In this document: positions 12,625-31,756 of the stretch, in pieces | How the letters are laid out: each line of letters begins with the position of its first letter | Position numbering within the stretch: the stretch's first letter is position 1 | Source: Bacteroidota bacterium | GTDB lineage: Bacteria > Bacteroidota > Ignavibacteria > UBA10030 | Direction of reading: 5' to 3' | Assembly (NCBI GenBank): GCA_035506075.1 | Contig: DATJQB010000290.1 | Span: 50-64,049, forward strand | DNA length: 64,000 bases | The notes under the pieces: model-generated | The model's input: the letters and a program-made list of their open reading frames with translations, nothing else | What the model was told of the DNA's origin: nothing | Databases searched by the model: none | Made by a program: the position numbers and the translations under genes

Positions 12625-12686
12625 CCCACCGGGCTTCTGCGGTGTGTGCAAAACACTCTGACTGATCAATATACCTCAAAGACCGC

Positions 12687-15610: not shown

Positions 15611-18364
15611 TTAAAATTGGAGCTGCAACCCGAGCCGGTACACGCGGGGAGGCGTGTAGGCCTGGGGATCGTTGTAGGGACCGGTCGGGTTACCCGTGGC
15701 TTCGTATTCAACAAGACCTTCACGTCCATCGGAGATGTAGGAAATGTTCCTGGTGTTCAGCAGGTTCTTGACCTCTGCGAGCACCGAGAATTCAATCTCA
15801 CCAACCGTAAAGGATTTCCGCGCACGCATATCCACGTTGCTTGCCCACGGAAGCCGGGCGTCGTTGCGAAGGACAAACAGCGGAAACGCATCGCGGGTGT
15901 TCGATGAATACGGATAGCCGGAGTGGGCGACGACCACAAAATCGACCTCGGCATCGCCGATGAGGTCGTGAATCTTTCCCGTCGACGTCAGGAGCAGGTT
16001 GCCGTTGATTCTCCAGCGCACATCCCAGTCGAGCGGATCGAGGCGACGCGGAACAATTTCACCGTTCGATCTGAACACAGACGACGAACGGCCGTTTGCG
16101 AACGCGTAGCTCACGTTGATCATCCCGCCGATTCCACGGGTTGCCATCGTCTCGAGCGTCATTTCCAATCCGCGTACGTTCGCATAATCCATGTTCGTGT
16201 ATGCCTGGTACGAATCGGGGGAACCCGTGATTACGAAGTCGGTGGCCCCGATGAGGTTGGTGATGTCTTTGAAATAGAGCGTTGTGTTCATCCTGAGAAA
16301 ATCGGAGAACATGTGATCCCAGCCGAGCTCGTACGATACGGTCTTCTCCGGCAGCAATCTCGGGTTGCCGAGATCTACGTTTGTCGTGTAGCGGAAATTC
16401 AGAGCGCTGTTTTCATAGAGGAAGCGAAGATCCGGACGCTGGAAGAAGTGTCCATAATAGAAATGAATCTTGTCCCTCTCGGTAATTGGATGTGAAATGC
16501 CGATGCGGGGGCTGATCTGCCACCGGGCGGGAACCTTGTCGGACGTCGTCAGACCCAGGGCATCCTTGTGGCTCGGCAGTGTGGTAAGATCGGCGGGATA
16601 GAGCACGTCCCCCGTCAAACCGTTTGGATTATAGTAATCGAAGCGGATGCCGGCATTCACAATAAAACCGTCGCGGACTTCGATCTTGTCCTGGAGATAT
16701 GCGGCAAAGTCCACCAGGTCCTGGTTCCACATATCAAAGCGCTGATTGGAAGGAGACTCGAATGTCACCTTCTCAACGCCCCCCTTGATGTAGTCTGTTT
16801 CGACCCCGGTCTTGAAGAGGTTAGAAGAGTTCAGCTGGTTTGAATAGTCGACGCGCAGGTTGGTTGTGCGTGAGATCTGATTCAGATACCATCCTTCATC
16901 GCCGGTGTAGTACCAGTAACCGTCGGTCAAGAGGTGGCTGTAGTAGCCCCCAATGCCGCCATTGAGTTGCCAGTGAAGTTCGTCCGTCGTGCTGCCGTCG
17001 AGATTCCTGTCGTCGACATCGCGGACGATCTCACGGAAGTTCGTCCAGAACTGTGACAATTTGATGTCGATGAACGATTGATTGTTGATCGTCTGGTTGA
17101 TCGAGAGACCGATGTTGTAGCTTTTGTTGATCGGGAGTGAAATGTGATTCTGCATTCCCGCCTGATAGATGTTCTGCACACTCTTGTACCACAGGCCGTC
17201 GACTGCATATCGTGCCGAGTCGGGATTCTTCGCGTTGTGGTAGTTTTGTGGATTGGTGACGAAGATGAACTGTTGCAGCGTCTTGACGCCGTTCGAGGTA
17301 ACGAGCTGCTGGAAGAGATCCGACTGGTATCCTTCGCTCAGCGGTCCATACTTCGCGGAGGAGTGATAGTAGGAATTCGTCTGGTCCCAGGAATACAAGC
17401 CGCTGAGTGTGACGCGGGTATTCGGAGTCACCGCCCGCATCTTGAGCTGGTAGGATTCCCTGTGAAAATCCTCATGTGGAAGAAAATCGCGGTTCTGCAG
17501 CGCAACGTCCGTTGAACCGTTCAGATAGAAGTTGATTCCCCCCATGGTAACGGAAGGAGCGCTGATATATGCTTCGTAGTCTTTCCAGTCCGGCTGACCG
17601 GTGCCGTACGCGAAGGGCGTCCACTGCATCTTCGCCCACGGAAAATCCGAGGTGCGGACGCGGAGCTTAGCGCCGAACCTGTTCTGATCCCGCGTGATTG
17701 TGTTGACGATGCCCGATTGCGCATTGCCGTACTCCGCCTCAAACCCGCCCGTCGTTACCTGGATCTCGGAGACGCTGAACTCGGGAAGATTGGCTGAGAA
17801 GCCGGCCGTTGTTGTTCCGCTGTAGCTGTTGATGGCGCTCTTGATCGCCATGCCGTCAACCAGGAACAGCGACTCGTTGAAGCGGCCGCCGCGGAAATGA
17901 CTTCCGTTCACGCCGGCCTGCATGAAGACCACCTCTCTGAAATCGTCGACCGGCAGAGCGTTGATCGCTTCGGCTTCAACGATGTGCTTCGTGGATGTCA
18001 GGTCTGCCTGAATCGGAGGCCTTGTCGCCACAACGACAACCTCGCCGAGCTGGACATCAGCCGCCTGCAGCGGGAAATCGATTGTCGTGGTCATGTCGAG
18101 CATGACCCTGATGTTCGAGATGGTCTTTGGTGCAAAGCCAATCATCGACGCGCGCAGGGTATAAGTCCCGACGGGCACGTTGATAATGAAGTAGTTGCCG
18201 TCGACATCGGAAGCCGTTCCATAGGTGGTACCAACAATCTGGATGTTCACCATCGGGAGCGGCTGGTGAGTGGCGGCATCAAAGACGCGACCAGCGATTT
18301 TTCCGGTCGTCCCCGCCAATGCGAGCTGGGACGCGAGAAGAAAGAAGCAAAGGAGCCTTTTCAT
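15611..18364 (-). CDS. TonB-dependent outer-membrane receptor (CarboxypepD_reg N-domain)
   Basis: 917 aa. Signal MKRLLCFFLLASQLALAGTTG, then KIAGRVFDAATHQPLPMVNIQIVGTTYGTASDVDGNYFIINVPVGTYTLRASMIGF. Plug/barrel length and C-terminal ...RLGLQLQF. Confidence 0.85.
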   Translation of the reverse strand: MKRLLCFFLLASQLALAGTTGKIAGRVFDAATHQPLPMVNIQIVGTTYGTASDVDGNYFIINVPVGTYTLRASMIGFAPKTISNIRVMLDMTTTIDFPLQAADVQLGEVVVVATRPPIQADLTSTKHIVEAEAINALPVDDFREVVFMQAGVNGSHFRGGRFNESLFLVDGMAIKSAINSYSGTTTAGFSANLPEFSVSEIQVTTGGFEAEYGNAQSGIVNTITRDQNRFGAKLRVRTSDFPWAKMQWTPFAYGTGQPDWKDYEAYISAPSVTMGGINFYLNGSTDVALQNRDFLPHEDFHRESYQLKMRAVTPNTRVTLSGLYSWDQTNSYYHSSAKYGPLSEGYQSDLFQQLVTSNGVKTLQQFIFVTNPQNYHNAKNPDSARYAVDGLWYKSVQNIYQAGMQNHISLPINKSYNIGLSINQTINNQSFIDIKLSQFWTNFREIVRDVDDRNLDGSTTDELHWQLNGGIGGYYSHLLTDGYWYYTGDEGWYLNQISRTTNLRVDYSNQLNSSNLFKTGVETDYIKGGVEKVTFESPSNQRFDMWNQDLVDFAAYLQDKIEVRDGFIVNAGIRFDYYNPNGLTGDVLYPADLTTLPSHKDALGLTTSDKVPARWQISPRIGISHPITERDKIHFYYGHFFQRPDLRFLYENSALNFRYTTNVDLGNPRLLPEKTVSYELGWDHMFSDFLRMNTTLYFKDITNLIGATDFVITGSPDSYQAYTNMDYANVRGLEMTLETMATRGIGGMINVSYAFANGRSSSVFRSNGEIVPRRLDPLDWDVRWRINGNLLLTSTGKIHDLIGDAEVDFVVVAHSGYPYSSNTRDAFPLFVLRNDARLPWASNVDMRARKSFTVGEIEFSVLAEVKNLLNTRNISYISDGREGLVEYEATGNPTGPYNDPQAYTPPRVYRLGLQLQF

Positions 18365-18690: not shown

Positions 18691-18731
18691 AGGACAAAAG
18701 GAAGGGTCCAACCGGAACAAGCGTTGGACCC
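18691..18731 (-). terminator. Rho-independent terminator downstream of ctp (minus strand)
   Basis: Hairpin gggtccaac-(cggaacaagc)-gttggaccc at 18704..18731. The minus-strand 3' tail reads UUCCUUUUGUCC (plus-strand aggacaaaaggaa at 18691..18703). Confidence 0.5.
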
Positions 18732-18761
18732 TGAAGTCGAAGACTGATTGCTGGGATTGTG

Positions 18762-20396
18762 CTAATTCAGTTTGGCGAACTTCACTGCCTCCGGCAGAAG
18801 TGCGACGGCCTTCTGGAACTGGGGATCGACTTCCAGCATGACCCGGTACGATCCGTTGTTTCCCCAGAACGATCGCGCGATCTCAGCCCGCAGGCGCGCC
18901 TTGACAAACACCAGGTCTTTCTGAAGATCCTTCTCTTCCACCTTCAGCCCCTTGGTTGTCACAAAATTGCGAAAATCCTGCAACATCTCGTCGGATACGA
19001 CAAACGATTTGACGAAGCGGAGGATGTCGTCGCCGTACGTCGACCGCAGCGCCTGGCCATGCGCATCCAGCCATGTCGTCATGAACTGATAGAACATATC
19101 GCGTCTTTGGAGATTTTGCGTGAACTCCGCGGCAGCGGGCGGCTTCACGATAAAGTCCGGCGAAATTCCTCCGCCCCCATAGACGATGCGCCCTCCGCTG
19201 GTATGATACATGGGGCGGGCCGAATCGGCTTTCGACGCTGCGTCGTTCTTGTGTTCAAGATTGTCACCTTCTTTTTCAACGCGCTCGAATGCTTCCCGCT
19301 CGTACTCCGCTTTGTCTTTTCCGGTATAGGTTCGCTGGATGAGCCGGCCCGCCGGCGTGTAATACCGGGCAATTGTCAGGCGGAATGCAGAGCCGTCGCC
19401 AAAGGCCCACTGACGCTGTACAAGACCTTTTCCAAAACTCGTTTCGCCGACGATCAGCCCGCGATCCCAATCCTGGATGGCGCCCGCCACGATCTCGCTT
19501 GCGCTTGCAGATGCATGGTTGATGAGAACGATGAGCGGCAGCTTCTCGTACTCCTGGCCGGTTGTTGCCGTATAACTTTCTTCAAGTTCCGGGACGCGCG
19601 CCTTGGTGTACACAATTTGCCGGGGTTTCGATTTCGTACCTGCGTCGAGGAACAAATCCGCCACCTTCACCGCTTCTTCAAGGACGCCCCCGGGGTTGTA
19701 GCGCAAATCAAGAATGAGCCGCTTCATGCCGTGGGCGCGTAGATCGCGCAGCGCGTTGGTCATCTCCGCTCCGGTTGTCAGGGCGAACTTGTTCAGTGCG
19801 ATGTACCCGACTTCTTCGTTTATCATCATCGATACATCGATACTGTTGAGCGAGATATCGGCGCGTGTAATTTCGTAGTCAAGCACACCCGGAACACCGG
19901 GTCTGCCAATGGAGACTTTGACCTTTGTCCCTTTTGGTCCGCGCAGCCGCTTCGAAGCCTGATCCGAGGTCAACCCGACCGCCGTGCTGTCGTTGATTTT
20001 CACAATCCTGTCATTCGAGAGAATCCCCAGCTTCGCAGCGGGACCTCCCCCCATCGGCTCGACAACGATGATGGTGTCGTTCAAAGCGCGGATCGACAGT
20101 CCAACCCCCTGATAGTTGCCCTGCATTTCCTCGGAGGCTTTCTCGAACGCCTTCGGTGGAAAATAGACCGAGTGCGGGTCGAGCTGGTCGAGCATGCCGT
20201 TGATCGCTGCCTCCGTAAGTTTGCGCGTATCGACAGGATCAACGTAGTATTTGTCGGAATAGACCAGGATGTCCTGGAATTTTCTCATCTGGTCGTAAAT
20301 GTTGTCGGCCGAGATCAATCCTCGCCCCTGAAACCCTACCAACATTCCGATGAGCATCACTGCAGCGACCATCCAGACCGAATACCTCTTTTTCAT
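18762..20396 (-). CDS. ctpA: Carboxyl-terminal processing protease (S41 family, Ctp/Prc-like) with PDZ domain
   Basis: ORF 18762..20504 trimmed to MKKRYSVWMVAAVMLIGMLV (signal/anchor). PDZ segment GVGLSI...EPMGGGPAAKLGILSNDRIVKIND. S41 core RLILDLRYNPGG, LINHASASASEI, GETSFGKG. Confidence 0.85.
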   Translation of the reverse strand: MKKRYSVWMVAAVMLIGMLVGFQGRGLISADNIYDQMRKFQDILVYSDKYYVDPVDTRKLTEAAINGMLDQLDPHSVYFPPKAFEKASEEMQGNYQGVGLSIRALNDTIIVVEPMGGGPAAKLGILSNDRIVKINDSTAVGLTSDQASKRLRGPKGTKVKVSIGRPGVPGVLDYEITRADISLNSIDVSMMINEEVGYIALNKFALTTGAEMTNALRDLRAHGMKRLILDLRYNPGGVLEEAVKVADLFLDAGTKSKPRQIVYTKARVPELEESYTATTGQEYEKLPLIVLINHASASASEIVAGAIQDWDRGLIVGETSFGKGLVQRQWAFGDGSAFRLTIARYYTPAGRLIQRTYTGKDKAEYEREAFERVEKEGDNLEHKNDAASKADSARPMYHTSGGRIVYGGGGISPDFIVKPPAAAEFTQNLQRRDMFYQFMTTWLDAHGQALRSTYGDDILRFVKSFVVSDEMLQDFRNFVTTKGLKVEEKDLQKDLVFVKARLRAEIARSFWGNNGSYRVMLEVDPQFQKAVALLPEAVKFAKLN

Positions 20397-20564
20397 CAGT
20401 AACCTCTGTTCGTTCAACAAGAATACTCTTACTTCTTTCAACGCCGGCGGCGGAGGGCTGGTTCCTCGAACCGATGCAAAGGAGCCCGCGCACCCGGAAT
20501 TCACAACAATATACCGAATATTGTCCCCAGAGAAAACCCGCGATCCTGTGAAACGGCACGGAGC

Positions 20565-20592
20565 AAAAAAATCCCCGGTCGAAGCCGGGGAT
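20565..20592 (-). terminator. Rho-independent terminator downstream of TPR gene (minus strand)
   Basis: On the minus strand: hairpin atccccggcttcgaccggggat followed by UUUUUUU (plus-strand aaaaaaatccccggtcgaagccggggat). Lies 26 bp past the stop of 20618..21562. Confidence 0.55.
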
Positions 20593-20617
20593 CGGTGTTT
20601 GGCATCTCACAATCTTG

Positions 20618-21562
20618 TTAGCGGGCAAGGGCACGGATTTTCACGCGCGCGTCGTCGGCAGCCCTTCCGCTTGGTACCATGGACAAATAGCGTTGATACT
20701 CTTCCTTCGCGAGGTCGTTCTGACCCATGAATTCATACAATTGCGCGATGCGGAAGACAAGCGGGGTGCGCGATGGATCGAGGGCAAATGCTTTTTGAAA
20801 TGAGAGGATCGTTTCAGGATACTTTCGCTGCATCTGATACGCTCGTCCAAGCTGGTAATGACTCTCCGCCTGTTCCGGGGCAACCTCAACATACTTCCGG
20901 AACATGACGATCGCCGCATCGATTTCCCCGCGGGCTCTGTGGTATTCGCCGAAATGAAAGTACGCCTGCCACGAAGCCGGGCGCGAGTAGATAGCCTTCT
21001 GGTACATGGTCACCGCTTTGTCGCTTTCTCCTTCTTCCGCGAAAATTCCTGCGTGCGCCAACACCCCAAGATAGGGATCCAGCTTCGCGATTTCGTTTGC
21101 CTGTTCGTGCGCTTTCTGGTAACTGCCGCCGAGAATGCCCGGCGCGAAGACGTAGTACTGCACGAGCGCTTCGCGGTACACCGTGGAGGATGGATCACAT
21201 TTCACGGCAAGCTCGAGCTGCGCCTTCACCTTCGGAGCGAGGAACGGCATGCGGACAAGTCCGGCGTATTCATAGTTTGCCATGTACGCTTCAGCCAGCA
21301 TGTAGTGATACTCCGCGTTTGATTCATCGAGACTGACTGCTTTCTCGAGATGATCGATCGCGCGATCGGAATTTGACGGCTCGTGAAGGTTGTCCATCCC
21401 GAGCTGATAGAAAGCTCCAGCCATCGCGGCATCCTTCGCGGGCGCGCTGTGTTCAAGACGCTTCTGGCCAAACTGCAACGGCTGAGACCACGCACCGATC
21501 GTCAGTGCAACCATCAGGCTCACAGCGGTGAGCGATCGTCCCATAGCTCTCTTGTCTGCCAT
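20618..21562 (-). CDS. Secreted tetratricopeptide-repeat protein
   Basis: 314 aa. Signal-like N-terminus (SLTAVSLMVALTIGAWSQP). Repeated 34-aa TPR-like units (AEYHYMLAEAYMANYEY..., WQAYFHFGEYHRARGEIDAAI..., ESHYQLGRAYQMQRKYPETI...). Confidence 0.65.
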   Translation of the reverse strand: MADKRAMGRSLTAVSLMVALTIGAWSQPLQFGQKRLEHSAPAKDAAMAGAFYQLGMDNLHEPSNSDRAIDHLEKAVSLDESNAEYHYMLAEAYMANYEYAGLVRMPFLAPKVKAQLELAVKCDPSSTVYREALVQYYVFAPGILGGSYQKAHEQANEIAKLDPYLGVLAHAGIFAEEGESDKAVTMYQKAIYSRPASWQAYFHFGEYHRARGEIDAAIVMFRKYVEVAPEQAESHYQLGRAYQMQRKYPETILSFQKAFALDPSRTPLVFRIAQLYEFMGQNDLAKEEYQRYLSMVPSGRAADDARVKIRALAR

Positions 21563-21627
21563 CGAGTATCCCCCTTCCCCAATGCCGAAATCCGGTCTGT
21601 CTGTACTACGGTTCCCGAGAACGAGAG

Positions 21628-22779
21628 TTACGACTCCTCCGGCTCAGGAAAAACCCCGCTTTGTTGCATCGGAATCACCACCGCGACCTCCAGTCCACGC
21701 GGGGATTTGTTGGCGAGTATGAACCGGTGATTGTCTCCGTAGAGCTGCTCGAGGCGCTCCCGGGTGTTCTTCAGTCCCACTCCTTCATGAACCGGCATGC
21801 CGTTCTCCACGGCGAGTCCGGGGCCGTCGTCCACGACCGACAGGCGGAGCGACCCAATACTCCGGCGCGCGGAAATGTCGATGCATCCTCCGCTCGCCCT
21901 CGGGGCAACCGCATACCGGATCGAATTCTCCACGAGCGGCTGGAGAATCAGGTTGGGGACCTTGCAGTCCAAGACTTCCGGCTCGACGGCAATCCGGACT
22001 TTCAGCCGGTCGCCGAAGCGTGCCTGTTCGATTTCCAGGTAGCGCTGCAGGAAATCGATTTCCTCGCGCAATGTAACCTCCTGGACGCCAACGTTGTGAA
22101 GCGAGTACCGCAACAGATCGCCGAGCCGCGCGAGCACCTTGTCGGCTTCATCCACATCCCGGTGCATGAGTGAAGAAATTGTGTTGAAGGTGTTGAAGAG
22201 AAAATGCGGGTGAAGCTGCATCTTCAATGACTGCAGCTGTGCCTGCGTAAGCTGGGTCTTCAGTTGCGCGGCGCGGAGTTCGCGCTCGCGAAACTTCCTG
22301 TAATACTCCCGGCCGTACCCGATCCCCAGAATGGCCCAGTACGTCAGGAGGTTGATGTGGAAATATACCACGAACGTTCGTTCGATCGCGCGAAAGGCCT
22401 CGTAGAGTTGCAGGCGGTCGGGACTGAACGATTGAACGACGATCTCCGCGATCAGCAGCTGTACACTTGACAGCAGCACGCTTGTCATGAGATGAACGAT
22501 CACAGCGAGAACCTTCGACCCGCGCTCAAAGCGAAACCGCTTTCCCAGCCACAGGACGAGCGGTGCAATGCATCCCCATATATAATAGAAGGAAAGGTTG
22601 GTTTTGAGAGCGAGATCCCACGAAACCGGAGTGCGGAAAATATACCGGCCCCAGAGCGCCGACTCGGACGCGAAGAACAACCCCGCCGCCGTCCAGATCA
22701 GGAAGTAGGAAACCCATTGTATCCATTTGCGCTCGAACAGACCTTCCCGCCGATCGACGCGCAGTGACTCGGGTGCCAT
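21628..22779 (-). CDS. Sensor histidine kinase, LytS/YehU-type (multi-TM N-domain + His_kinase + HATPase_c)
   Basis: 383 aa. Four to five predicted TM helices at the N-terminus. LHPHFLFNTFNTISSLMHRD (phospho-His box of the His_kinase PF06580 type). LQPLVENSIRYA (N-box), DDGPG, GVGLKNTRERL (G-boxes). Starts 5 bp after the decarboxylase stop. Confidence 0.8.
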   Translation of the reverse strand: MAPESLRVDRREGLFERKWIQWVSYFLIWTAAGLFFASESALWGRYIFRTPVSWDLALKTNLSFYYIWGCIAPLVLWLGKRFRFERGSKVLAVIVHLMTSVLLSSVQLLIAEIVVQSFSPDRLQLYEAFRAIERTFVVYFHINLLTYWAILGIGYGREYYRKFRERELRAAQLKTQLTQAQLQSLKMQLHPHFLFNTFNTISSLMHRDVDEADKVLARLGDLLRYSLHNVGVQEVTLREEIDFLQRYLEIEQARFGDRLKVRIAVEPEVLDCKVPNLILQPLVENSIRYAVAPRASGGCIDISARRSIGSLRLSVVDDGPGLAVENGMPVHEGVGLKNTRERLEQLYGDNHRFILANKSPRGLEVAVVIPMQQSGVFPEPEES

Positions 22780-22783
22780 ATGT

Positions 22784-24262
22784 TCAGGCTCGTAAAGTTT
22801 TCAAGGCCGTTTGAATCTGCCGCCATGTCATGAGTGCGTGTTCCTCTGATGTCTTGAGTTGTCCGACAACCATGCGGATGGTGTACGCGTCGCCCAGTTT
22901 TGTATGCGACAGGAACGTCTCGCGGCTTCCGTTGACGAGGTTGATAAGATCATCGTTGAGCTTGCTCAGCTCCTGCTCCGAGTCCATTCCCTTCGGATGT
23001 GCCCGGAAGCAGACCGTCGCAAAGTGTACCGGCGCAAGCACTTCGAAATCCGGATCTTCTTCCACCCACTGCTTGAATGCGCCGGCAATCCGGAGGTGTT
23101 CGCGGAGTCGTGCGGCGAGGCCGTCCCAGCCGAAGTAGCGAAGCACAAACCAAAGCTTCAGTGCGCGGAAGCGTCTGCCCAACGGAACACCGTAATCCAT
23201 GAGGTTGCGCACGACATCGTCATGCGCAGTCCGAAGATATTCCGGGACGAGCGAAAACGCCCGGCGCATGATCTCCGGCTTCCGCGTGTAGAGAACGCTC
23301 AGATCAACCGGGACGAACATCCATTTGTGCGGATTGATGACGAAGGAGTCCGCCCGTTCACATCCCTCCAGCACGTATCGCTTCTCCGGGACAATCGCCG
23401 CGCTTCCGCCGTACGCGGCATCCACGTGCAGCCAGAGTTTCTCCCGCTCGCAGATGTCCGCAATTGCCGGTATCGGGTCGATGCTCGTGCACGACGTCGT
23501 GCCGACTGTTGCCACGACGCAGAACGGCCTGATGCCGTTTCGGCGATCGTCCGCAATGGCTGCGGCGAGCGCCTCCGGCCGGATGCGGAATTGTGCATCA
23601 ACGGGGATGCGGCGAACCGCATCAAGACCGAAGCCAAGCGTGATAACGGCTTTCTCAACAGACGAATGCGCGAAGTCAGAAATGTACAGGCGGAGCCTGG
23701 GAACATCCTTCCTCCCCGCCATTCCATGCTCGCGCATGTTCAGATCCGCCATCGACTCACGCGCCGCAGCGATCCCGTGCATCGTGCTCGTCGATGCGGT
23801 GTCGAGGATCATCCCCCAATACTCGGCCGGAAGTCCGATCATCTGTCGCAGCCAGTCCAGCGTGACGGTTTCCAGCTCCGGTACTGCCGGGCACGATTCC
23901 CAGACCATTCCGTTGCCGTTCAGGGCAGAGGCGATCAACTCTGCCAGGATGGCCGGACTGCTCGCTGATGAATTGAAATACGCATGGAACCTTGGATGGT
24001 TCCAGTGTGTCACGGCGGGCATGATCAGCCGATCTACATCTGCAAGGATATCCGGCATTGGCTCACCGGTTTTCGGCGGAGCCGGGGGAAGAGACCGGAT
24101 GAGGTCGCCCGGTTTCATATCCGGTCGCACCGGCCTCTCTTCTATAGTGTCCAGGTAATCTGCCACCCAGTCGACCAATTGGTGGCCGTAGTTCCTGAAC
24201 TCATCGTTCGGCATGTCGCCTAATGGCTTGCGGGATTGATCCACGAGCTTCTTGTCTGTCAC
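22784..24262 (-). CDS. Pyridoxal-phosphate-dependent aromatic-L-amino-acid (group II) decarboxylase
   Basis: 492 aa. HWNHPRFHAYFNSSASSPAILAELIASALN and VDAAYGGSAAI...SFVINPHKWMFVPVDLSVLY, including the PLP-lysine NPHKW motif typical of DDC/TDC/GAD group II decarboxylases. Confidence 0.8.
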   Translation of the reverse strand: MTDKKLVDQSRKPLGDMPNDEFRNYGHQLVDWVADYLDTIEERPVRPDMKPGDLIRSLPPAPPKTGEPMPDILADVDRLIMPAVTHWNHPRFHAYFNSSASSPAILAELIASALNGNGMVWESCPAVPELETVTLDWLRQMIGLPAEYWGMILDTASTSTMHGIAAARESMADLNMREHGMAGRKDVPRLRLYISDFAHSSVEKAVITLGFGLDAVRRIPVDAQFRIRPEALAAAIADDRRNGIRPFCVVATVGTTSCTSIDPIPAIADICEREKLWLHVDAAYGGSAAIVPEKRYVLEGCERADSFVINPHKWMFVPVDLSVLYTRKPEIMRRAFSLVPEYLRTAHDDVVRNLMDYGVPLGRRFRALKLWFVLRYFGWDGLAARLREHLRIAGAFKQWVEEDPDFEVLAPVHFATVCFRAHPKGMDSEQELSKLNDDLINLVNGSRETFLSHTKLGDAYTIRMVVGQLKTSEEHALMTWRQIQTALKTLRA

Positions 24263-24295
24263 GTGATATCCGATCTTCTATTATAGAGATAGAAA

Positions 24296-25216
24296 CTACT
24301 TGGCGTTTGGACTCTCCGGGGGCAAAGGACTTGTGACTTCCGCTACGAGCTTCCATCTGCTGGCGACGTCCCGTCTCCATGCATGCAGGTAATAGCCTTT
24401 CTCGACGGTTGCAGTTCCCGCCGAAGACAACGCGGTGTAGCTTCCAATGGAATATCCCAGATCACCCGCAGCGGAAACTACGGCGTTGAGTGTGATTCCG
24501 GAGGTAAGGTACGGATGGTGGAGGAAAAAGGACTGTATTGAATCCAATCCGATGACGGGTTGAAATCCCTGCCGGTACACCCGGGCGTCAGGCTCAAACG
24601 TTTTTTGAAGAAGCGTCTGCACCTTTTTTTCCTTCAGGCTTTGGAAGAACACGCGCTCAGCTTCGATCATCTCCTCGCGGTGCTCCTCTGTGCTCAATGG
24701 CGGAATTGCTGTTGTCCGCTTCACGGGATCGGGCGCGTGGAATTCACGCGATCCGGCGAAAGGCCCGGGAAGCTCTGTGCCGACATCGAATACAACTTGC
24801 CACACCCCTGACGCTTGTTTCTTCCAGAAGGAAAAATAAAACCCGTAGTATCGCGGCCGCTTCGCCGCGGTGTGATCGGTCCACACCGATGGTCCCGTTG
24901 TGTAACCCAGATCGCCGCTGATCGCGATATCAGCCCAGATCGGTTCCCATTCCAGTGTCGTCTCCGTTGGATTCTTCGGCATCGGGACACTCTTCATGGC
25001 TTCTTTGTACTTCACGGGGTGGGGTCTGAACACCATCGCGTCATCGGCAAAAAATTGCATGAACGACGGCCGCGCGCCGATCTTCAAACTCGTAGCGGCA
25101 AAACTTCGCTCCGCTTCAACGAGCGATGTGAGGGCCTCTCGATGGAGTGTCCCCTGCGCTTTGCCGACAACCGCCAGGAACAAGATTGCAGCAACAATTG
25201 CCGCTGTCCTTTTCAT
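24296..25216 (-). CDS. Secreted hypothetical protein with two similar ~130-aa halves (possible tandem SnoaL/DUF4440-like domains)
   Basis: ORF 24296..25228 trimmed to MKRTAAIVAAILFLAVVGKAQ (signal peptide). The halves begin ...LVEAERSFAATSLKIG...FADDAMVF and ...EMIEAERVFFQSLKEK...FEPDARVY. The family assignment is tentative. Confidence 0.5.
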   Translation of the reverse strand: MKRTAAIVAAILFLAVVGKAQGTLHREALTSLVEAERSFAATSLKIGARPSFMQFFADDAMVFRPHPVKYKEAMKSVPMPKNPTETTLEWEPIWADIAISGDLGYTTGPSVWTDHTAAKRPRYYGFYFSFWKKQASGVWQVVFDVGTELPGPFAGSREFHAPDPVKRTTAIPPLSTEEHREEMIEAERVFFQSLKEKKVQTLLQKTFEPDARVYRQGFQPVIGLDSIQSFFLHHPYLTSGITLNAVVSAAGDLGYSIGSYTALSSAGTATVEKGYYLHAWRRDVASRWKLVAEVTSPLPPESPNAK

Positions 25217-25271
25217 AGATTCTCCCATGTTGTCGTACTACCATAAGAAGCCGCCGGATAAGATGCAACAA

Positions 25272-25295
25272 GGCCCCCGGGAAAACCCGGAGGCC
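25272..25295 (-). terminator. Possible terminator after SusD-like gene
   Basis: Imperfect GC hairpin ggcccccggg-aaaa-cccggaggcc, 46 bp downstream of the SusD stop. The U-tract on the minus strand is weak (uuguugcaucuu). Confidence 0.3.
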
Positions 25296-25340
25296 TTGCT
25301 TGTCAGATGCCGGGGGTCGTTCCCGCCCCGTCGTTACTGG

Positions 25341-26774
25341 TTATTGGATGCTGAACGGTGAGACCCTGCTGCGATTTGCCGCCAGGACCTTGTTCATATC
25401 CCACAGGATCGTCACCGTCGAACCCGCGGTTGTGAACCGCCTCATTTCGTCGCTTGCCGGGATGTAGTCGGGAACGACAACGGTTGTTCCGGGGCTTCCC
25501 GGTGTGATGTTGGGGTTGCCGTCGATCTGACGCTGCGACACCGGGAGACGAATGCCAAGGTCAATCATGCGCCTTCCTTCAAGGAAGAAGATCTCCTGTC
25601 GAAGCAGGTAGAGCGTCCTGAAGTGAGAGTAGACCGAGGAGAGCGTGTCGACCATTGCCGTGGTGACGCTCGTGCCGGACGTGGAATAGACCGTAACGAT
25701 CGACGCACCGCCCCGCTTCTGGATCAACCCTGCGATCGCCGGCTCGTTGGCATCCGACTTGACGAGGAAGGTTGGATCGTTCGGGTGGCCCGGACGGGTG
25801 TCTTTATCGTTGTACGTCGTCGTGGGGCGCGATCGTGCCGTTGTAATCGCGCTCTTCATATTCAGCTTCGCACCGGCCAGGTCGCCGTTTGCCAGTGCGA
25901 CTTCGGCGAGGATCAGGTATGCCTCCTCGGACTTCAGCACCGGGACCTGCGTCCCGTTTGTGGGGTATTTGGGATCGAGAAAGTCGAGCCGCGGCAGAGG
26001 CTGGATGTCGTTTGTCGACCTGCCAACGATCGCTGCATACGTCGTCGATGTTAGCTGCGCCGGATCGAACTGGGCGGCGAAAAGATAGGATGTCCCGCCG
26101 AGTGCAAGCGCAGCATTCGCTTCCGCAGCAGCGTTGACCTTGTCGCCCAGCATCCGGAACGTCCGTGCCCGGGCCATGCGGCAGTTCGCCTTCATTGCCG
26201 ATTGTGTCGTCAGGTTGAATGCCGTTTGAAACTGGTCGTTCGCGATCTGAAGCGCCCGTTGTGCCGTCACAGCCGGTCCCTTTTCAGCGATCGGGAAGTT
26301 CGTGAACCCTTCGCCGAGGATCAGCAGCGCCATGCCTTTGTAGAAGTAGACTTCGGCTTTCTGATCGTTGGTCGCGAAAATATCGCCCGGCAGAATTGAC
26401 GAGATTCCGAAATCGGCCAGAGCGTTCAGCTGCAGCGCGTTTTCGTACATCGCGTTATAGGTGAACGAGTTTCCCGTGATTGTCCGCGGATACGAGAGCG
26501 TATTGTCGTAGAACGACGTGCGGTTGTCCAGGTTGTCGGAAACCATGTCGCCGATTAACGAGGAGATGCCGATCGTGTTCGAGAAATATCGTCTCATGCC
26601 GGTCACGAGCGAAGTCGTTCCGCCGACGGGATTTTCGAGCAAGTTGTCGGCGGTAATGGATGGATTATCCACCTTGGACGGATCGACGAGGTCGCATGCC
26701 GCCAGCGAAAGTACGAGCACGCTGAAGAGTGTTCGGACTGCAATGGTTCGCGTTAATGTCATGGTAGTACGCAT
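25341..26774 (-). CDS. RagB/SusD-family nutrient-binding outer-membrane lipoprotein
   Basis: ORF 25341..26813 trimmed to MRTTMTLTRTIAVRTLFSVLVLSLAAC (lipoprotein signal with lipobox Cys). ~475 aa helical/TPR-like protein immediately downstream (38-bp gap) of a SusC-type TBDR. The sequence has the alanine-rich SusD-like repeats. Confidence 0.7.
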   Translation of the reverse strand: MRTTMTLTRTIAVRTLFSVLVLSLAACDLVDPSKVDNPSITADNLLENPVGGTTSLVTGMRRYFSNTIGISSLIGDMVSDNLDNRTSFYDNTLSYPRTITGNSFTYNAMYENALQLNALADFGISSILPGDIFATNDQKAEVYFYKGMALLILGEGFTNFPIAEKGPAVTAQRALQIANDQFQTAFNLTTQSAMKANCRMARARTFRMLGDKVNAAAEANAALALGGTSYLFAAQFDPAQLTSTTYAAIVGRSTNDIQPLPRLDFLDPKYPTNGTQVPVLKSEEAYLILAEVALANGDLAGAKLNMKSAITTARSRPTTTYNDKDTRPGHPNDPTFLVKSDANEPAIAGLIQKRGGASIVTVYSTSGTSVTTAMVDTLSSVYSHFRTLYLLRQEIFFLEGRRMIDLGIRLPVSQRQIDGNPNITPGSPGTTVVVPDYIPASDEMRRFTTAGSTVTILWDMNKVLAANRSRVSPFSIQ

Positions 26775-26812
26775 ATGGTCTTCTCCTTTGATTGGGATCC
26801 AGTCGTGTTCCA

Positions 26813-29680
26813 TTAGAATGTGAAATCGAGTCCAAGGCGGTACTGCCGCGGCGCTTCAACCGTTGCGCCGGCGATGCCTCCGACCTCGATCGCTGTACTT
26901 GGAATGAAACTGGTCTCCGGATCAACATTCGTTGCCTTGATGCCGAAGCTTGCCACATTGCGTACGCTTGCAGTAATTGCGAGTCCGCTCACCAGCCCGC
27001 CGATGACAGCGCGCGGCACACGATACCTGACCGAAATTTCCCGGATCTTGAACCAATCACCAGGTTCAACCAGGACCGAGGACGCCGTGTTGCGGTTGTA
27101 CGGAGTGCTGCCGGGAGCAACCACGGGGATCAGAGACGCTTCCTTCTGATAGAGTGCCGGGTTCGCGAGGCCGTTGACGATGCGCCGCGAGAGCGACTGA
27201 TTGAGGATGTAGTTTCCCCACGCGCCTTCGAACAATCCGGAAATCGTAATGTCCTTCAGGATCGTGATGTCGGCTCCAAAGGACACCGTGTTCTTCGGAA
27301 CGGGTGATCCCACATAGACCGTATCCACCCTGCCGCGGTAGGTTCCATCAGATTCGAGATGTGGTTTGCTCACACGGATAATGCCGACCTCTTTTCCTTC
27401 CTCCACACGTTGCGGGGCAAACGAAAACCCCGCGATCGTAAACGGGGCCGCGCCGCCGAGGCTGTTAACCCGGTTCTTGAGCGTGGTGTAGTACCCGCGC
27501 AGGTTGACCTGTACGTCCTCCATGTCCACGGCGATCGCCCGCATGGTAACCTCGAAGCCCTGGTTGAAGATCTCGCCGACATTCCGCCGCTGCGTACCGA
27601 GTCCGGCTGCCGGATCTTCCGTTACCGTGAACATTGCGTCCTTCGTGATCTGACGGTACCACGAGAACTCCACGGAGATCCGATCGTCAAGAAATCCCGC
27701 ATCGAAGCCCGCATCAACGGACGTCGTGTTCTCCGGTTTCAGATCCGAGTTTCCCGGATTGCCGAAGCTGAGTGCCGATTCGTTGAAGAAAATGTTCGAG
27801 ATGAACGTTCGGTCTCGCGTGAACGGTGGCGGAAAGGTTCCCGTCTTTCCCCACGATGCACGAAGCTTGAGACTCCCAAGGTACGGCTTGAGCGCATCGG
27901 GATAGATTGATTCATCCGAGATGTTGTACGCAACGCCGACCTTCGGGTATGTCTGAATACCGATCGCCTTGCCGAATGTTGAGTTTCCGTCGAATCGAAC
28001 GCCGACATCGAAGAAGAGCCGGTCCCACAACCCGATCTGATCCTGCGCCAGATAGCCGTAGCTGAACAGTTCACGGTTGCTCTCCTGGGCGGTAACGACG
28101 GAAGCGTTGCTGAAAATCTGCGTACCGGGAATTCTGAACGTCGTTCCTGTGCCGTTTTCTTCCCGGTCGTCAATCCTGAACCCCTGCGCCCCCACGATCA
28201 GCCGCTGCGTCATGGGCCCGATGGTCGGCACTTTGAATGTTCCTGTATAGTTCAACGTGATAGTTTTGTACTCACGATCGGAACGCGACAAGAGACCGCC
28301 GACCGTTCCCCAAAACGCCCCCTGTTCAAGCGGGACATACTGCCTGTTTTCATTCTTCCTGTAGTCGACGCCGATCGTCGCCTTGTTTTCCCACCATGAA
28401 AACGGCGTGTAGGTAAAGTTGGTGGAGAAAATCCAGCGATTCACATTCTCCCTCCAGTCGCCGAGCAAATGCTGTGCAAACAGGCTGTCCTTGCTTGCCT
28501 GGTTGTTCAGCACATCGAACGCCCCTTCGATTTCGAGATTCGAAAGAAGCGATTCGCTGGAGTTGTCATTCGAGAGGATCCCGTATTCGTCGTGAGTGTA
28601 ACTCGACGAAACTTCCACGCTCGCAAGCTCGGAGACAACAACCCGCAGGCCCGTGGAGAGATTGTAGAGCTTTTCGTTGAGCGCGTCCTGTGTGACGACA
28701 CCCTTGTTCTCCGACATTTTCCCGGCGACGTTGTACGTGATGACGTCGCTCCCGCCGACAGCGTTCAGGCCATATCCCTGGTAGAGGCCGGGACGGAAGA
28801 ACTTGTTCTTCGTCATGTCGTTTGAAAAGTCCTTGAGAGGTTCAACGTCCGAGCCCGATGTCACATTGGCGCTCCATCGGATTGCGCCTGGAATCCCCTT
28901 TTTCGTAAAGATCTGTATGACGCCGTTTGCAGCTTCCGCGCCGTAGAGGGTCGCGGCCGCGCCTCCTTTGATAACCTCAATATGGTCGACATCGCCGGAA
29001 AGAATATCGGAAATCGACGAAGAGATCTGTCCTCCGGTGGCGTTCGAAAGCCGCCCCTGGTAGTTGTTGTCAACCCGGACTCCATCGACGTAGATGACCG
29101 GTGTCGGCTGTCCCAACGCGGACTTGATGCCGCGTGTCATGATGCGCGCTGACGAGCCCGGTGCACCGCCGGGTGTGTACGACATCAATCCCGGCACACG
29201 CCCCTGCAGGAGTTGATCGACGGACTTCGCAGGACTCAGGTCGACATCTTTTGAAGAGATCGACTCAACAACGGACGGCAGCCGCTTCTTCTCTGTTGCG
29301 GCTCCCTGGCCTGTGACGACGACCTCGTTCAGCTGCACCGCTGTTGCCGCAAGTCCGAAATCCAGCGTAGCGGTTTCTCCGGCCACGACCTTCACGTCCC
29401 GCGCAAGCTCCTTGTAGCCCACATAGCGGGCGCGCACGGTGTATGTGCCGGGAGGAACCTGTTTGATGACGAACAGTCCCTCGAGATTTGTCGAAGCCCC
29501 AAGGCTCGTGCCGACGATAAAGACGTTGGCGCCAATCAGCACCTCGGACCGGCCTGCTTCCGAAACAGTCCCGCGAATCTCGCCGGTTTTTGTCTGGGCC
29601 GCTGCAGGTGTACCGTTCGCGGCGACGAGAAGCAGCAACACCAAGAATCCAGTGCTAAAACGTAGGAGCAATTTTTTCAT
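26813..29680 (-). CDS. SusC/RagA-family TonB-linked outer-membrane transporter
   Basis: 955 aa. Signal MKKLLLRFSTGFLVLLLLVAANGTPAAAQ. CarboxypepD_reg-like GEIRGTVSEAGRSEVLIGANVFIVGTSLGASTNLEGLFVIKQVPPGTYTVRARYVGY. Plug motifs (VVVTGQG..., TRGIKS..., PVIYVDGVRVDN). Ends LGLDFTF. Paired with a downstream SusD-like gene. Confidence 0.85.
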   Translation of the reverse strand: MKKLLLRFSTGFLVLLLLVAANGTPAAAQTKTGEIRGTVSEAGRSEVLIGANVFIVGTSLGASTNLEGLFVIKQVPPGTYTVRARYVGYKELARDVKVVAGETATLDFGLAATAVQLNEVVVTGQGAATEKKRLPSVVESISSKDVDLSPAKSVDQLLQGRVPGLMSYTPGGAPGSSARIMTRGIKSALGQPTPVIYVDGVRVDNNYQGRLSNATGGQISSSISDILSGDVDHIEVIKGGAAATLYGAEAANGVIQIFTKKGIPGAIRWSANVTSGSDVEPLKDFSNDMTKNKFFRPGLYQGYGLNAVGGSDVITYNVAGKMSENKGVVTQDALNEKLYNLSTGLRVVVSELASVEVSSSYTHDEYGILSNDNSSESLLSNLEIEGAFDVLNNQASKDSLFAQHLLGDWRENVNRWIFSTNFTYTPFSWWENKATIGVDYRKNENRQYVPLEQGAFWGTVGGLLSRSDREYKTITLNYTGTFKVPTIGPMTQRLIVGAQGFRIDDREENGTGTTFRIPGTQIFSNASVVTAQESNRELFSYGYLAQDQIGLWDRLFFDVGVRFDGNSTFGKAIGIQTYPKVGVAYNISDESIYPDALKPYLGSLKLRASWGKTGTFPPPFTRDRTFISNIFFNESALSFGNPGNSDLKPENTTSVDAGFDAGFLDDRISVEFSWYRQITKDAMFTVTEDPAAGLGTQRRNVGEIFNQGFEVTMRAIAVDMEDVQVNLRGYYTTLKNRVNSLGGAAPFTIAGFSFAPQRVEEGKEVGIIRVSKPHLESDGTYRGRVDTVYVGSPVPKNTVSFGADITILKDITISGLFEGAWGNYILNQSLSRRIVNGLANPALYQKEASLIPVVAPGSTPYNRNTASSVLVEPGDWFKIREISVRYRVPRAVIGGLVSGLAITASVRNVASFGIKATNVDPETSFIPSTAIEVGGIAGATVEAPRQYRLGLDFTF

Positions 29681-30076
29681 GATCTCTCCTTGTTGGTGAT
29701 GGAGTATCGTTGATTTAATGGAGACAGAATCCTGTCGAACACATCAGTGAAGAGAAGGCGGGCGCTCTCGTGAAATGTACATCGGCCAGAGGCTGCGGAG
29801 AAGCAAAAAGCCACGAAGCGGACTATTTTGCTTTTGGACGCGTACGATTCGTTGATGGATGGAAGCGCATTGTGCAGGACCAGTCGTCACGGACTGTGAG
29901 CGATGACGCCGGTTCTTTCATGAAGAGCACGCGGTGATGATGCGGGTGTTGTTGAAGTTCGACGACAGAGAATGAAACGGGTCGGGAGACGCCGGGCGGC
30001 GCGGCAATCGGGTGAACGATCACCGGTGCGATGCGATGAAACGGGGAGTTGTTGCCGGCGAAATTGGCTGTGCGCG

Positions 30077-30856
30077 TTAGAGTGTGGTTCCCAGAAGATC
30101 GGGCAGGTTGCTCCTGTAGCTCCGGCTCATCGTCAGCTGCGTACCGTCTCGCATGATGACAACATACTCACCGTGGAACCAGGGCTGCAGCTCTTTGATT
30201 TTCTCGATGTTCACGAACGTTGATCGGTGAATGCGGATGAACATTGCCGGGTCGAGTTTCTTCTGGATGGCGTTCATGGTTTCCCGGAGCAGGTGCGTCT
30301 CGTTGCCCACATGAAGCCTGACGTAATTGCCCGCAGCCTCAATCCAGTCTATTTCATCATTCTTCAGGAAGAAAACCCTTCCTCCCGACTTCACGACGAG
30401 GCGGTCGGCTTGCTTCTTTGGACCTTTCAGCTGCCTCAGGAGTGAATTCAGCTGTTGGTTGATCTCGTTTCTACGCCCTGGCTCCAGGTGCTCACGAACA
30501 CGGTTCAGGGCCGTCTGAAAGCGCTGCCTGTCGAATGGCTTCAGCAGGTAGTCTATGGCATGGACATCAAACGCCTGTACCGCGTACTGATCGTATGCTG
30601 TGACAAAGATGACGGCCGGAAATCGCTCCGGGCCAATCGTCTCGATCACACCAAATCCATCCAGTTCCGGCATCTGAATGTCGAGAAAGACAAGATCGGG
30701 AGTAAGAGACGCGATCGATTGCACCGCCTCCGCACCGTTCGTGCACTCATCGACGATTTCGACATCCATTTCTGTCTTCAGCAGCTCGCGAATCTTGTTG
30801 CGCGCTGGCGGCTCGTCATCAACGATGAGGGCCCGGATCTTCTTCGTGTCTACCAT
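30077..30856 (-). CDS. LytTR-family two-component response regulator (receiver + LytTR DNA-binding domain)
   Basis: ORF 30077..30991 (the track ORF begins at an alternative TTG). Likely start MVDTKKIRALIVDDEPPARNKIRELL. Receiver motifs DD...D (LVFLDIQMPELDGF), VIFVTAY, K-containing LLKP. C-terminal LytTR motifs (VVKSGGRVFFLKNDEIDWIEAAGNYVRLHV..., FIRIHRSTFVNIEKIKEL). Confidence 0.85.
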   Translation of the reverse strand: MVDTKKIRALIVDDEPPARNKIRELLKTEMDVEIVDECTNGAEAVQSIASLTPDLVFLDIQMPELDGFGVIETIGPERFPAVIFVTAYDQYAVQAFDVHAIDYLLKPFDRQRFQTALNRVREHLEPGRRNEINQQLNSLLRQLKGPKKQADRLVVKSGGRVFFLKNDEIDWIEAAGNYVRLHVGNETHLLRETMNAIQKKLDPAMFIRIHRSTFVNIEKIKELQPWFHGEYVVIMRDGTQLTMSRSYRSNLPDLLGTTL

Positions 30857-31030
30857 AGCAACTCTCTTTCTGTTGATGCGGAACGGATCCCACGTGGGCG
30901 GCCGGGAACATTGCCGTTCCCGGCAAGTGTCCGGCAGACCCCATCCAAGTGTGAGACGATTCATCAACAGGAAAAGTTGCACGGCCGACAATGGCGATGT
31001 CGGGAATCTTCATGTGGGCTATTCTGCCGG

Positions 31031-31756
31031 CTACTGTGCGTGCATTCCGACGAGCAGGATCCTGAAGAAAGGAATTGTTCGCACTATGAATCGTTCAAGC
31101 CCCGCCTCTTCTGCCAACCTGCGAAACTCACGCACTGTGAATCCCCTGCGCACAGAAAGAACCGCATCGGTCCTTGTCATTGGATTTCTTGTGGTGAGCG
31201 CGGTATAGAGCCAGGCCACACACACCGCCATCGGGCCTCTCGTCAAATCAACGATCACGAGTCCTATCCGACTGAGCTCTCGCATTGATCGCATGATCCG
31301 CACGCCGTCCGCCGATGAAAAGTGATGCATTGTGAGCGAGCAGAGGACGATGTCAAATGACGCCGGGGGGTAGTCGAGGTTAAGGATGTCGCCTGCTTCG
31401 ATTGTGATTTCCGGGACGTGTTCTGTGAGTCGTCGCGCTTCATTCAGAACAAGCTGATGCTTGTCCACGGCCGTGATGTGGATTCGCCGCTTCCTCTTCC
31501 GCGCCAGCCGGGAGAGATAGAGCGGGATGTCGGCCGAGCCGGTTCCGAGATCGAGAATTGTTATAACGCGGTCGCCGGCCCGTTCCAGAAACCCGCCAAT
31601 GCCCAGGCGGATGGCCCGCTCGCCTCCAAAGAACCTGTTCACGGTCCGGATGCTCTGAAGCTCATCGCGGAGAAGCCCTTCATCGGCGTTCGGGTCCTCG
31701 ATGAGTTCGGGAAGCCCGGGATCAAATTTTCTCTCTGACATATGAAACCTCATCAC
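31031..31756 (-). CDS. Class I SAM-dependent methyltransferase
   Basis: 241 aa. Motif I ILDLGTGSADIPLYL. Post-I acidic ITAVDKHQ. Motif IV-like FDIVLCSLTMHHF. The start may be the downstream Met (MSERKFD). Confidence 0.7.
   Translation of the reverse strand: MMRFHMSERKFDPGLPELIEDPNADEGLLRDELQSIRTVNRFFGGERAIRLGIGGFLERAGDRVITILDLGTGSADIPLYLSRLARKRKRRIHITAVDKHQLVLNEARRLTEHVPEITIEAGDILNLDYPPASFDIVLCSLTMHHFSSADGVRIMRSMRELSRIGLVIVDLTRGPMAVCVAWLYTALTTRNPMTRTDAVLSVRRGFTVREFRRLAEEAGLERFIVRTIPFFRILLVGMHAQ

Follow-up and report, generated by a model that had tools for sequence, protein, structure and literature searches.

In this work we analysed a 64-kb stretch of DNA (the window), a contig of a metagenome-assembled 'Bacteroidota bacterium' whose nearest relatives are labelled Ignavibacteriales. 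It contains a 9.2-kb string of six genes running from a LytTR-type response regulator (RR) through a SusC-type receptor, a SusD-like lipoprotein, a DUF4440 protein and a pyridoxal-phosphate (PLP)-dependent decarboxylase (DC) to a histidine kinase (HK). We think it probable that this string is not one Sus-type operon but three modules placed side by side within a LytTR-type two-component system whose split is specific to the lineage. The protein families (LytTR RR, His_kinase-type HK, SusC-type receptor, SusD-like fold, aromatic-L-amino-acid decarboxylase (AADC)-type DC) are already known. What is unusual is that the two genes of a LytTR pair, very likely cognate, stay apart across the clade with changing, co-directional cargo between them, that the RR lies behind a conserved promoter of the extracytoplasmic function (ECF) sigma type, and that a SusD-like family without a sequence model recurs; the layout is uncommon, but this is not a new kind of system. 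A first reading of this DNA from its letters (the sequence-only reading) had given the same gene order, all on the minus strand, and open reading frames (ORFs) and domains bear it out, as follows.

30077-30856, minus strand: RR, receiver plus LytTR DNA-binding domain, 259 aa (PF00072, PF04397)
26813-29680, minus strand: SusC/RagA-type TonB-dependent outer-membrane receptor, 955 aa (TIGR04056)
25341-26774, minus strand: SusD-like surface lipoprotein, 477 aa (lipobox LAAC; predicted fold)
24296-25216 (ORF 24296-25228), minus strand: secreted tandem DUF4440 (NTF2-like) protein (PF14534)
22784-24262, minus strand: group II PLP-dependent aromatic-L-amino-acid-type DC, 492 aa, cytoplasmic (PF00282)
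21628-22779, minus strand: HK, 383 aa, four transmembrane (4-TM) segments plus His_kinase and HATPase_c (PF06580, PF02518)

The RR and HK genes are 7.3 kb apart in the window, and they very likely encode a cognate pair, because their homologues are adjacent in about 60 distant relatives and in two closer ones (L090 and L171), because their divergence co-varies and because the window holds no other partner. A metagenome scan with an alignment of kinase orthologues (alignment A3) gave 80 loci. In about 60 loci with a full-length 4-TM HK, 39-55% identical, and sequence downstream of it, a LytTR RR 43-62% identical to that of the window lies directly 3', while in L090 and L171 (HK 55-56% identical) the RR lies directly upstream of the HK. 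Each split locus has an RR orthologue (67-86% identity) as its upstream border, and over orthologous split loci the identities of RR and HK drop together (86/84, 84/78, 83/69, 68/60 and 67/56). The HK and RR distance matrices of 56 loci are correlated (r = 0.86, Mantel p = 0.001), a value to which shared phylogeny contributes and which tempers the argument, as a mirror-tree correlation can arise from phylogeny alone. The sequence-only reading had stated that kinase and regulator of the same two-component family bracket the locus, and had named cognate partners encoded elsewhere as the finding that would speak against it. The family assignment is confirmed by Pfam, the bracketing is kept in 10 contexts, in all of which RR and HK co-occur within 10 kb, and no other His_kinase-type or LytTR gene is found in the 64-kb window.

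Both proteins belong to the families to which LytS/LytR, BtsS/BtsR (YehU/YehT) and YpdA/YpdB belong, and share with these systems the kinase core (PF06580 plus HATPase_c) and the receiver plus LytTR regulator. The RR matches PF00072 with 88.8 bits (cut-off 30.2) and PF04397 with 97 bits (cut-off 22.6); its best NCBIfam match is BtsR, and it stays under the equivalog cut-offs of both BtsR (NF008677, 193 versus 246 bits) and LytR (NF010684, 175 versus 375 bits). By these scores it is an equivalog of neither. The HK matches PF06580 with 95.2 bits and PF02518 with 30.5 bits, which is the core of LytS/YehU (BtsS) kinases, so that the earlier label 'LytS/YehU-type kinase' is right for the core but not for the sensor. 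Neither 5TM-LytS (PF07694) nor GAF has a Pfam match in the HK at E <= 0.01; instead, hydropathy gives four hydrophobic segments (residues 20-44, 61-79, 93-111 and 136-154) joined by loops of 13-24 residues, with no periplasmic domain and with the kinase core following directly. This 4-TM domain, which has no Pfam model, is strongly conserved, with many invariant Trp, Tyr, Asn, His and Gln residues (alignment A3). The window system also differs from the three named ones in that its RR lies behind an ECF-type promoter and is parted from the HK by 7.3 kb of cargo. Close counterparts are the abundant 4-TM His_kinase plus LytTR pairs of soil and sediment bacteria (L091-L168), which have the same sensor, core and regulator over the full length (39-55% for HK, 43-62% for RR) and are canonical adjacent pairs, HK then RR, whereas in the window the order is inverted and the pair is split; we know of no member of this group with a known signal or regulon. 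A two-component locus with a gene between kinase and regulator is known in E. coli (qseE-qseG-qseF, or glrK-yfhG-glrR), where HK and RR of one system are likewise parted by co-directional, function-related DNA; there, however, it is one fixed accessory lipoprotein gene, whereas in the window's clade it is one to about 10 genes that change between close relatives.

Comparative synteny, proposed as a check in the sequence-only reading, finds the split throughout the clade, in the same flanking frame and with changing content. The frame consists of an S66 peptidase gene on the opposite strand, a methyltransferase gene, the RR, the cargo, the HK, a TPR gene, an S41 gene and another receptor gene, and lies in a region of the core genome together with mreB, mreC, purH, purN, PBP2 and RodA. 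Between RR and HK, whose bracketing is kept at HK identities from 56% to about 86-88%, the following cargo is found.

Window and a contig of P0002 (HK identity 100% and 86%): SusC, SusD-like, DUF4440, DC
L081/L082 (HK 84%): the window's cargo, with a divergent receptor operon added between RR and SusC
L089 (HK 84%): a different SusD-like gene (52%), a 236-aa protein, then DUF4440, DC
L169 (HK 80%): DUF4440, DC
L084 (HK 78%): DC only
L170 and L085 (HK 73% and 69%): a divergent receptor pair, then DUF4440, DC
L088 (HK 66%): SusC/SusD-like (64/62%), then glyoxalases, an AraC regulator and DUF6265; no DC
L086 (HK 60%): unrelated small genes plus DUF6265
L087 (HK 56%): DUF4440, DC

In every case the cargo is co-directional. 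The core met most often among split loci is DUF4440-DC-HK, and the DC-HK junction is kept in L081-83, L084, L085, L087, L089, L169 and L170. Not all members of the clade have the SusC/SusD-like pair in the slot: it occurs there in three forms (SusD-like identity 100%, 62% and 52%) and is missing from the slot of the close relatives L169, L084, L085, L170 and L087; in the metagenome-assembled genome (MAG) JAZDJN01 the pair (L003) and RR-DUF4440-DC-HK (L087) are on separate contigs. The earlier idea of a coherent 'SusC/SusD-decarboxylase gene string' does not survive this comparison, as the pair is a separately bounded module that five close relatives do not have at this place. The bracketing itself is, as judged from these loci, a clade-wide and derived feature. 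Distant relatives have adjacent HK-then-RR and two closer ones adjacent RR-then-HK; in the window's clade, genes would then have been inserted between RR and HK, DUF4440-DC being the commonest insert and the SusC/SusD-like pair probably a later, variable addition. Alignment of the window's intergenic regions with those of relatives lacking the importer pair revealed nothing at the insertion boundaries beyond the promoter and the hairpin described below. A SusC-SusD-HK-RR layout such as that of L005, L006 and L008 was considered as the ancestral one and discarded: their kinases match in the core only (48%) and carry a Reg_prop/Y_Y_Y sensor, and the regulators of the general 4-TM family are at least as close to the window's as theirs (51-53%). 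DUF6265, found beside the HK in L086 and L088, was likewise dropped as a relative of DUF4440 or a common co-sensor, as there is no BLASTP similarity. Two features of individual loci may be recorded here. In L171 (8484-9109) and L090 (8700-9192), where RR and HK are adjacent, tRNA gene sequences lie directly upstream of the RR. In L084 (contig_48353) the DC, MreB and receptor genes are each split in two ORFs, which points to frameshift errors of assembly, and the DC is full-length across the frameshift.

The three-module reading relies on signals in the spaces between the genes. The sequence-only reading had described small gaps throughout. This holds for DC-HK (4 nt), DUF4440-DC (33 nt) and SusC-SusD-like (38 nt), but the SusD-like-DUF4440 gap (about 124 nt) and the RR-SusC gap (396 nt) contain conserved promoter- or terminator-like signals. 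Together with those upstream of the RR, the elements are the following.

30954-30980, minus strand: ECF-sigma-type promoter upstream of RR (GCAAC plus T-tract, spacer, CGTCT)
30897-30940, minus strand: hairpin in the predicted RR 5' untranslated region (-22.9 kcal/mol)
29778-29840, minus strand: conserved block upstream of SusC (alignment with L081)
25270-25297, minus strand: terminator-like 12-bp hairpin after SusD-like (-30.8 kcal/mol in a 44-nt folding window)
25240-25268, minus strand: sigma-70-like promoter TTGCAT-N17-TATGGT before DUF4440-DC-HK, conserved in seven contexts

The predicted RR promoter reads TGCAAC-TTTT...-CGTCT, and is the single match in the window, with 0.03 expected. 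The form G[C/A]AACTTT-N14/15-CGTC[T/A] is common to 8 orthologous loci; it is invariant in six (alignment A4) and also found in L169 and L170. ECF-class promoters have a -35 element 'tGAAACnTTTt' and a -10 element 'CGTC' (PMC5758882). By this consensus, AAC followed closely by a T-tract marks the -35 element and CGTC or CGTA the -10 element, with about 16-17 nt of spacer between them, and the RR promoter belongs, by its sequence, to the ECF class. No promoter of this type precedes the adjacent-type loci L090 and L171. No ECF sigma gene was detected in the window by one tblastn search with E. coli RpoE or by Pfam on part of the genes, which is a weak test. As the receptor has no STN domain and this weak search of the window found no RpoE-like gene, the locus does not appear to be a trans-envelope Sus-like system with ECF sigma and anti-sigma factors.

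Directly after the SusD-like gene lies the perfect, G+C-rich 12-bp hairpin (z = -3.3). No other local hairpin between 18300 and 31900 is as strong, and this one is kept in L081 and L089. It abuts the promoter of the DUF4440 gene. The latter, in the form TTGC[A/T]T-N17-TA[T/A]GGT, is kept before DUF4440 (before DC in L084) in seven contexts (alignment A5), whether the gene upstream is SusD-like, RR or a divergent receptor gene, and the window's version is the single match in the window, with 0.01 expected. A direct repeat with a 15-bp period, GC[A/T]TCTTAT-N6-GCTTCTTAT, lies inside this promoter, over both -35 and -10 (alignment A5); it could be a protein-binding site or merely CTT-rich promoter sequence. 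Upstream of SusC, the conserved block (which also gave a blastn-short match) holds the inverted repeat AAGCAAAA-N17-TTTTGCTT (29801-29808/29826-29833) and folds with -14.9 kcal/mol (z -2.4), and a candidate weak promoter can be read in it (TTGCTT at 29801-29806, N17, GATGTA at 29778-29783). No hairpin comparable to that after SusD-like follows the RR, HK or TPR gene, and one follows S41. A strict consensus scan for terminators and promoters, with rules for U-tract and hexamers, missed both conserved elements. Because the hairpin and the conserved promoter part SusD-like from DUF4440-DC-HK, the string from RR to HK is probably not one operon. On operon prediction, another check proposed in the sequence-only reading, the internal hairpin and promoter argue against a single RR-to-HK unit, and DUF4440-DC-HK is one predicted unit. 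In the three-module reading, the RR gene would be transcribed from its own conserved ECF-sigma-type promoter; the SusC and SusD-like genes would form an importer module with its own conserved upstream block, ending at the strong hairpin; and the conserved sigma-70-like promoter would drive DUF4440, DC and HK, probably on into TPR and S41. Transcription of the RR may read through into SusC, since no strong terminator follows the RR in the window.

Several observations weigh against this reading. The hairpin has no clean U-tract and was not called by the terminator scan. The promoter before DUF4440 fits sigma-70 well and may be constitutive, and the boundaries of the transcription units are predictions. 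Nor was a regulator binding site found: direct repeats (9-mers) at 18-24 bp spacing are absent from 29681-30076, and when the regions preceding the first cargo gene in seven loci were compared, a shared motif had support no better than in shuffled sequences. The region contains one exact 10-nt direct repeat, CCCGTTTCAT, at 29972-29981 and 30036-30045 on the minus strand, just 3' of the RR stop, and this was not seen in the relatives examined. The LytTR binding repeats that the sequence-only reading had suggested looking for in 29681-30076 were therefore not found, there or in the equivalent regions of relatives: the two copies of the 10-nt repeat are 64 bp apart, and the inverted repeat is of 8 bp.

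The middle module is proposed to be an outer-membrane importer. The receptor scores 379.2 bits with TIGR04056 (cut-off 368.25) and has Plug (PF07715), beta-barrel (PF00593) and CarboxypepD_reg (PF13715) domains, as expected of SusC/RagA proteins. With the SusC/RagA signature TIGR04057 it reaches 37 bits, under the cut-off of 46.2, and Pfam finds no STN signalling domain on it. The lipoprotein matches no family of Pfam or NCBIfam at E <= 0.01, a chance capsid match aside, and a profile search of PDB sequences reaches SusD chains at E 0.077-0.079 only. Its AlphaFold2 model (pLDDT 80, pTM 0.82) has, in Foldseek, SusD/RagB proteins as all of its top 39 PDB matches (best E 1.6e-6, TM 0.45-0.50), so that the protein is SusD-like by predicted fold only. 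The earlier name 'SusD' is thus supported by the fold, the lipobox LAAC and the position of the gene 38 nt after SusC, but not by a match to a SusD/RagB sequence model. The family to which this lipoprotein belongs has more than 1000 homologues and no Pfam or NCBIfam model, and is found in Ignavibacteria, Melioribacteraceae, KSB1, Calditrichaceae, Thermochlorobacter, Rhodothermales and Gemmatimonadota. In most of 80 related loci (L001-L080) it is paired with SusC (full-length SusC match in 61, the rest being mostly truncated contigs), and the pair is mostly a stand-alone two-gene unit in varied neighbourhoods; the conserved neighbours sampled in other lineages are housekeeping or uncharacterised genes (methionyl-tRNA synthetase, peptidyl-prolyl isomerases, MoxR, M23, TPR proteins). 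Because Pfam finds no glycoside hydrolase, lyase or esterase domains in 18762-31756, and hence no carbohydrate-active enzyme genes in the locus, it is, on its gene content, not a polysaccharide utilization locus.

Hybrid two-component systems, SusR or ECF sigma/anti-sigma pairs are the usual regulators of Sus-like pairs. The window's pair resembles SusC/SusD (RagA/RagB) pairs in having a receptor that fits the SusC/RagA model followed, 38 nt on, by a lipoprotein of predicted SusD fold, in the ECF-type promoter of its locus, and in that pairs of some relatives are flanked by Reg_prop plus Y_Y_Y kinases, as in hybrid systems. It differs from them in the missing SusD/RagB sequence match, carbohydrate-active enzymes and STN domain, in that the ECF-type promoter precedes the RR and not the receptor and is kept where the receptor pair is absent, and in that the regulatory systems next to the pair are of the classical type, with LytTR or ~212-aa response regulators, and not hybrids. 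Of the 80 loci, 19 have a gene with a receiver domain no more than 10 kb away, three of them being the window and L081/L082. In L005, L006 and L008 the genes after the pair encode a kinase of ~1030 aa (Reg_prop + Y_Y_Y + His_kinase) and a LytTR regulator, and in six loci, mostly of Melioribacteraceae, a Reg_prop-type kinase and a ~212-aa regulator lie just upstream of it. The periplasmic Reg_prop plus Y_Y_Y sensor is typical of the hybrid two-component systems of Bacteroides. Classical non-hybrid kinases of ~1040 aa with this sensor adjoin the pair in L005 (3329-6430), L006 (11619-14729) and L008 (11548-14589), and kinases with this sensor are also upstream of SusC in L013, L015, L018, L021, L025 and L038, with a LytTR or ~212-aa regulator. 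A small gene, Cro/CI-type helix-turn-helix-like as judged by eye from its translation, is found about 60 bp upstream of SusC in L006 (6561-6974) and L008 (6613-6957). Full-text literature searches returned no paper on LytTR control of a SusC/SusD pair and nothing relevant on SusD in Ignavibacteria. The window itself has three more TonB-dependent receptor genes, each followed by a gene for a 590-850-aa protein without Pfam match (15611-18364 and 13658-15601; 6310-8919 and 9066-10847; 2642-5686 and 30-2594), and these proteins may be more unmodelled SusD-like partners. A gene for an M19 dipeptidase with a type IX secretion system (T9SS) sorting tail (10924-12669) adjoins the first of these pairs.

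Control of the SusC/SusD-like pair by the RR and HK is plausible but unproven; as no regulator binding site was found, it is proposed from gene arrangement only. The recurrence of three divergent versions of one importer family in the same slot, while the HK is 66-100% identical, speaks in its favour, as does the position of this family beside other two-component systems elsewhere. The pair might instead be a self-regulated passenger, the interval between RR and HK being a tolerated insertion or recombination spot in a core region (mreBC-purHN-S66 ... TPR-S41). Several findings agree with this idea: a conserved block of its own precedes the pair and a strong hairpin closes it; in 70+ other genomes its orthologues form two-gene units by themselves, with varied, housekeeping or uncharacterised neighbours; five close relatives do not have it in the slot; one MAG carries it on another contig; and no binding motif was found. 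Yet finding three divergent versions (100%, 62% and 52% SusD-like) beside HKs of 66-100% identity suggests repeated capture or replacement and not a single accident, and in about 19 of 80 loci the family adjoins response-regulator systems, whether of LytTR type or not. We regard a mere passenger as a serious but rather unlikely explanation.

The third module joins a secreted protein, an enzyme and the kinase. The sequence-only reading had recognized a secreted protein with a duplicated domain, and this is what is found: PF14534 (DUF4440) matches the first half with 38 bits, the two halves are 28% identical (E 7e-10), and an N-terminal signal peptide is read from the sequence; the true start is probably the ATG at 25216, behind GGAG. 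The aromatic-amino-acid decarboxylase is likewise upheld at the family level by PF00282 (358.6 bits) and the PLP motifs. Among solved structures, DOPA/aromatic-L-amino-acid decarboxylases are the nearest to the DC, which matches over its full length the bacterial enzyme 7xin (E 3.8e-127) and pig DDC (1js3, E 6.7e-107), aligns with both over residues 20-490, and keeps the PLP-binding residues, namely the lysine of NPHKW, the histidine of AHSS and the aspartate of HVDAAY. It differs from these enzymes in being coupled to a secreted DUF4440 protein and translationally to a kinase, which is seen in this clade only: the HK starts 4 nt after the DC stop in the window, the two genes overlap in L085, and a gap or overlap of this kind is found in seven contexts. 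DC homologues 62-64% identical in KSB1 and Limnocylindrales stand alone in both contexts examined. The idea that the DC product is an obligate signal of the kinase was weakened by this occurrence of lone DCs in two other phyla and by the conservation of the 4-TM sensor, which is equal in loci without DC (L088 65%, L086 57%) and with DC (L085 64%, L087 47%); judged by these comparisons, such a role is unlikely.

Downstream of the HK, three further features complete the region.

20618-21562, minus strand: periplasmic TPR protein (Pfam; signal peptide seen)
18762-20504, minus strand: S41/CtpB-like protease (Pfam)
18703-18746, minus strand: hairpin after S41 (local folding)

They raise the alternative that the main task of the system is surveillance of the envelope or cell wall, with RR, HK, TPR and S41 as its core under the ECF-type promoter, the genes in the slot being irrelevant to the signal. 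All split loci have S41 3' of the HK, mostly with TPR in between (L084 and L086 have no TPR gene there), the HK overlaps the TPR gene in the adjacent-type L171, and there is no strong hairpin between HK and S41. The neighbourhood in the window contains the peptidoglycan and morphogenesis genes S66 LD-carboxypeptidase, mreB, mreC, PBP2 and RodA, ECF-class promoters are typical of envelope-stress regulons (PMC5758882), and the 4-TM sensor is as conserved without DC as with it. However, TPR-S41 may be kept merely as core-genome backbone, L090 has no S41 beside RR-HK, and this alternative leaves unexplained both the always co-directional cargo and the DC-HK translational coupling in seven contexts. 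We give limited credence to a circuit indifferent to its cargo, and note that the downstream TPR and S41, the ECF-type promoter and the peptidoglycan-gene neighbourhood are compatible with an envelope-related cue. Far less probable is that RR and HK are unrelated orphans with their true partners elsewhere in the genome, as their 7.3-kb distance, their apparently different transcription units and the fact that only 64 kb of the genome is visible are outweighed by their presence within 10 kb of each other in all 10 split contexts, their co-varying divergence, the adjacent HK-RR or RR-HK pairs of the nearest outgroups and the lack of another partner in the window.

The three-module reading, with the RR and HK acting together, can be put as a working scheme that starts from what the comparisons directly support, namely the gene content, the cognate pairing, the conserved split, the variable cargo and the conserved promoter- and terminator-like elements. 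An ECF sigma factor encoded outside the window would set the level of RR; the 4-TM HK, having no periplasmic domain, would sense a membrane- or envelope-associated cue and phosphorylate the RR; and the RR would act through its LytTR domain on one or both of the promoters inside the slot. We infer the phosphotransfer, the signal, the promoters bound by the RR and the substrates of the importer and of the DC. A more elaborate proposal would join these views. The RR-HK interval would be a 'cargo bay' in which co-directional arrivals come under the control of an ECF-primed LytTR system and modules for uptake or amine formation are swapped; in versions bearing a DC, this enzyme, translationally coupled to the HK, would make a membrane-permeant aromatic amine sensed by the 4-TM HK, closing an autoinducing loop. 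Such an amine-based loop would be analogous in logic to the peptide-based agr/com LytTR circuits, and we offer it as a speculation that is probably wrong.

Bacteria related to Bacteroidota have very many LytTR/His_kinase pairs whose sensors are small and confined to the membrane, and to our knowledge a signal or regulon has been established for almost none of them. With its pair split around changing, co-directional cargo, the present clade provides a natural list of candidate target genes, and is a tractable test case, in which binding of the RR to the two conserved promoters of the slot could be assayed. In addition, a large and widespread SusC/SusD-like family escapes current SusD sequence models and lies outside classical glycan loci. 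Its repeated occurrence beside classical, non-hybrid two-component systems suggests a wider picture of importer control, beyond that of gut Bacteroides.

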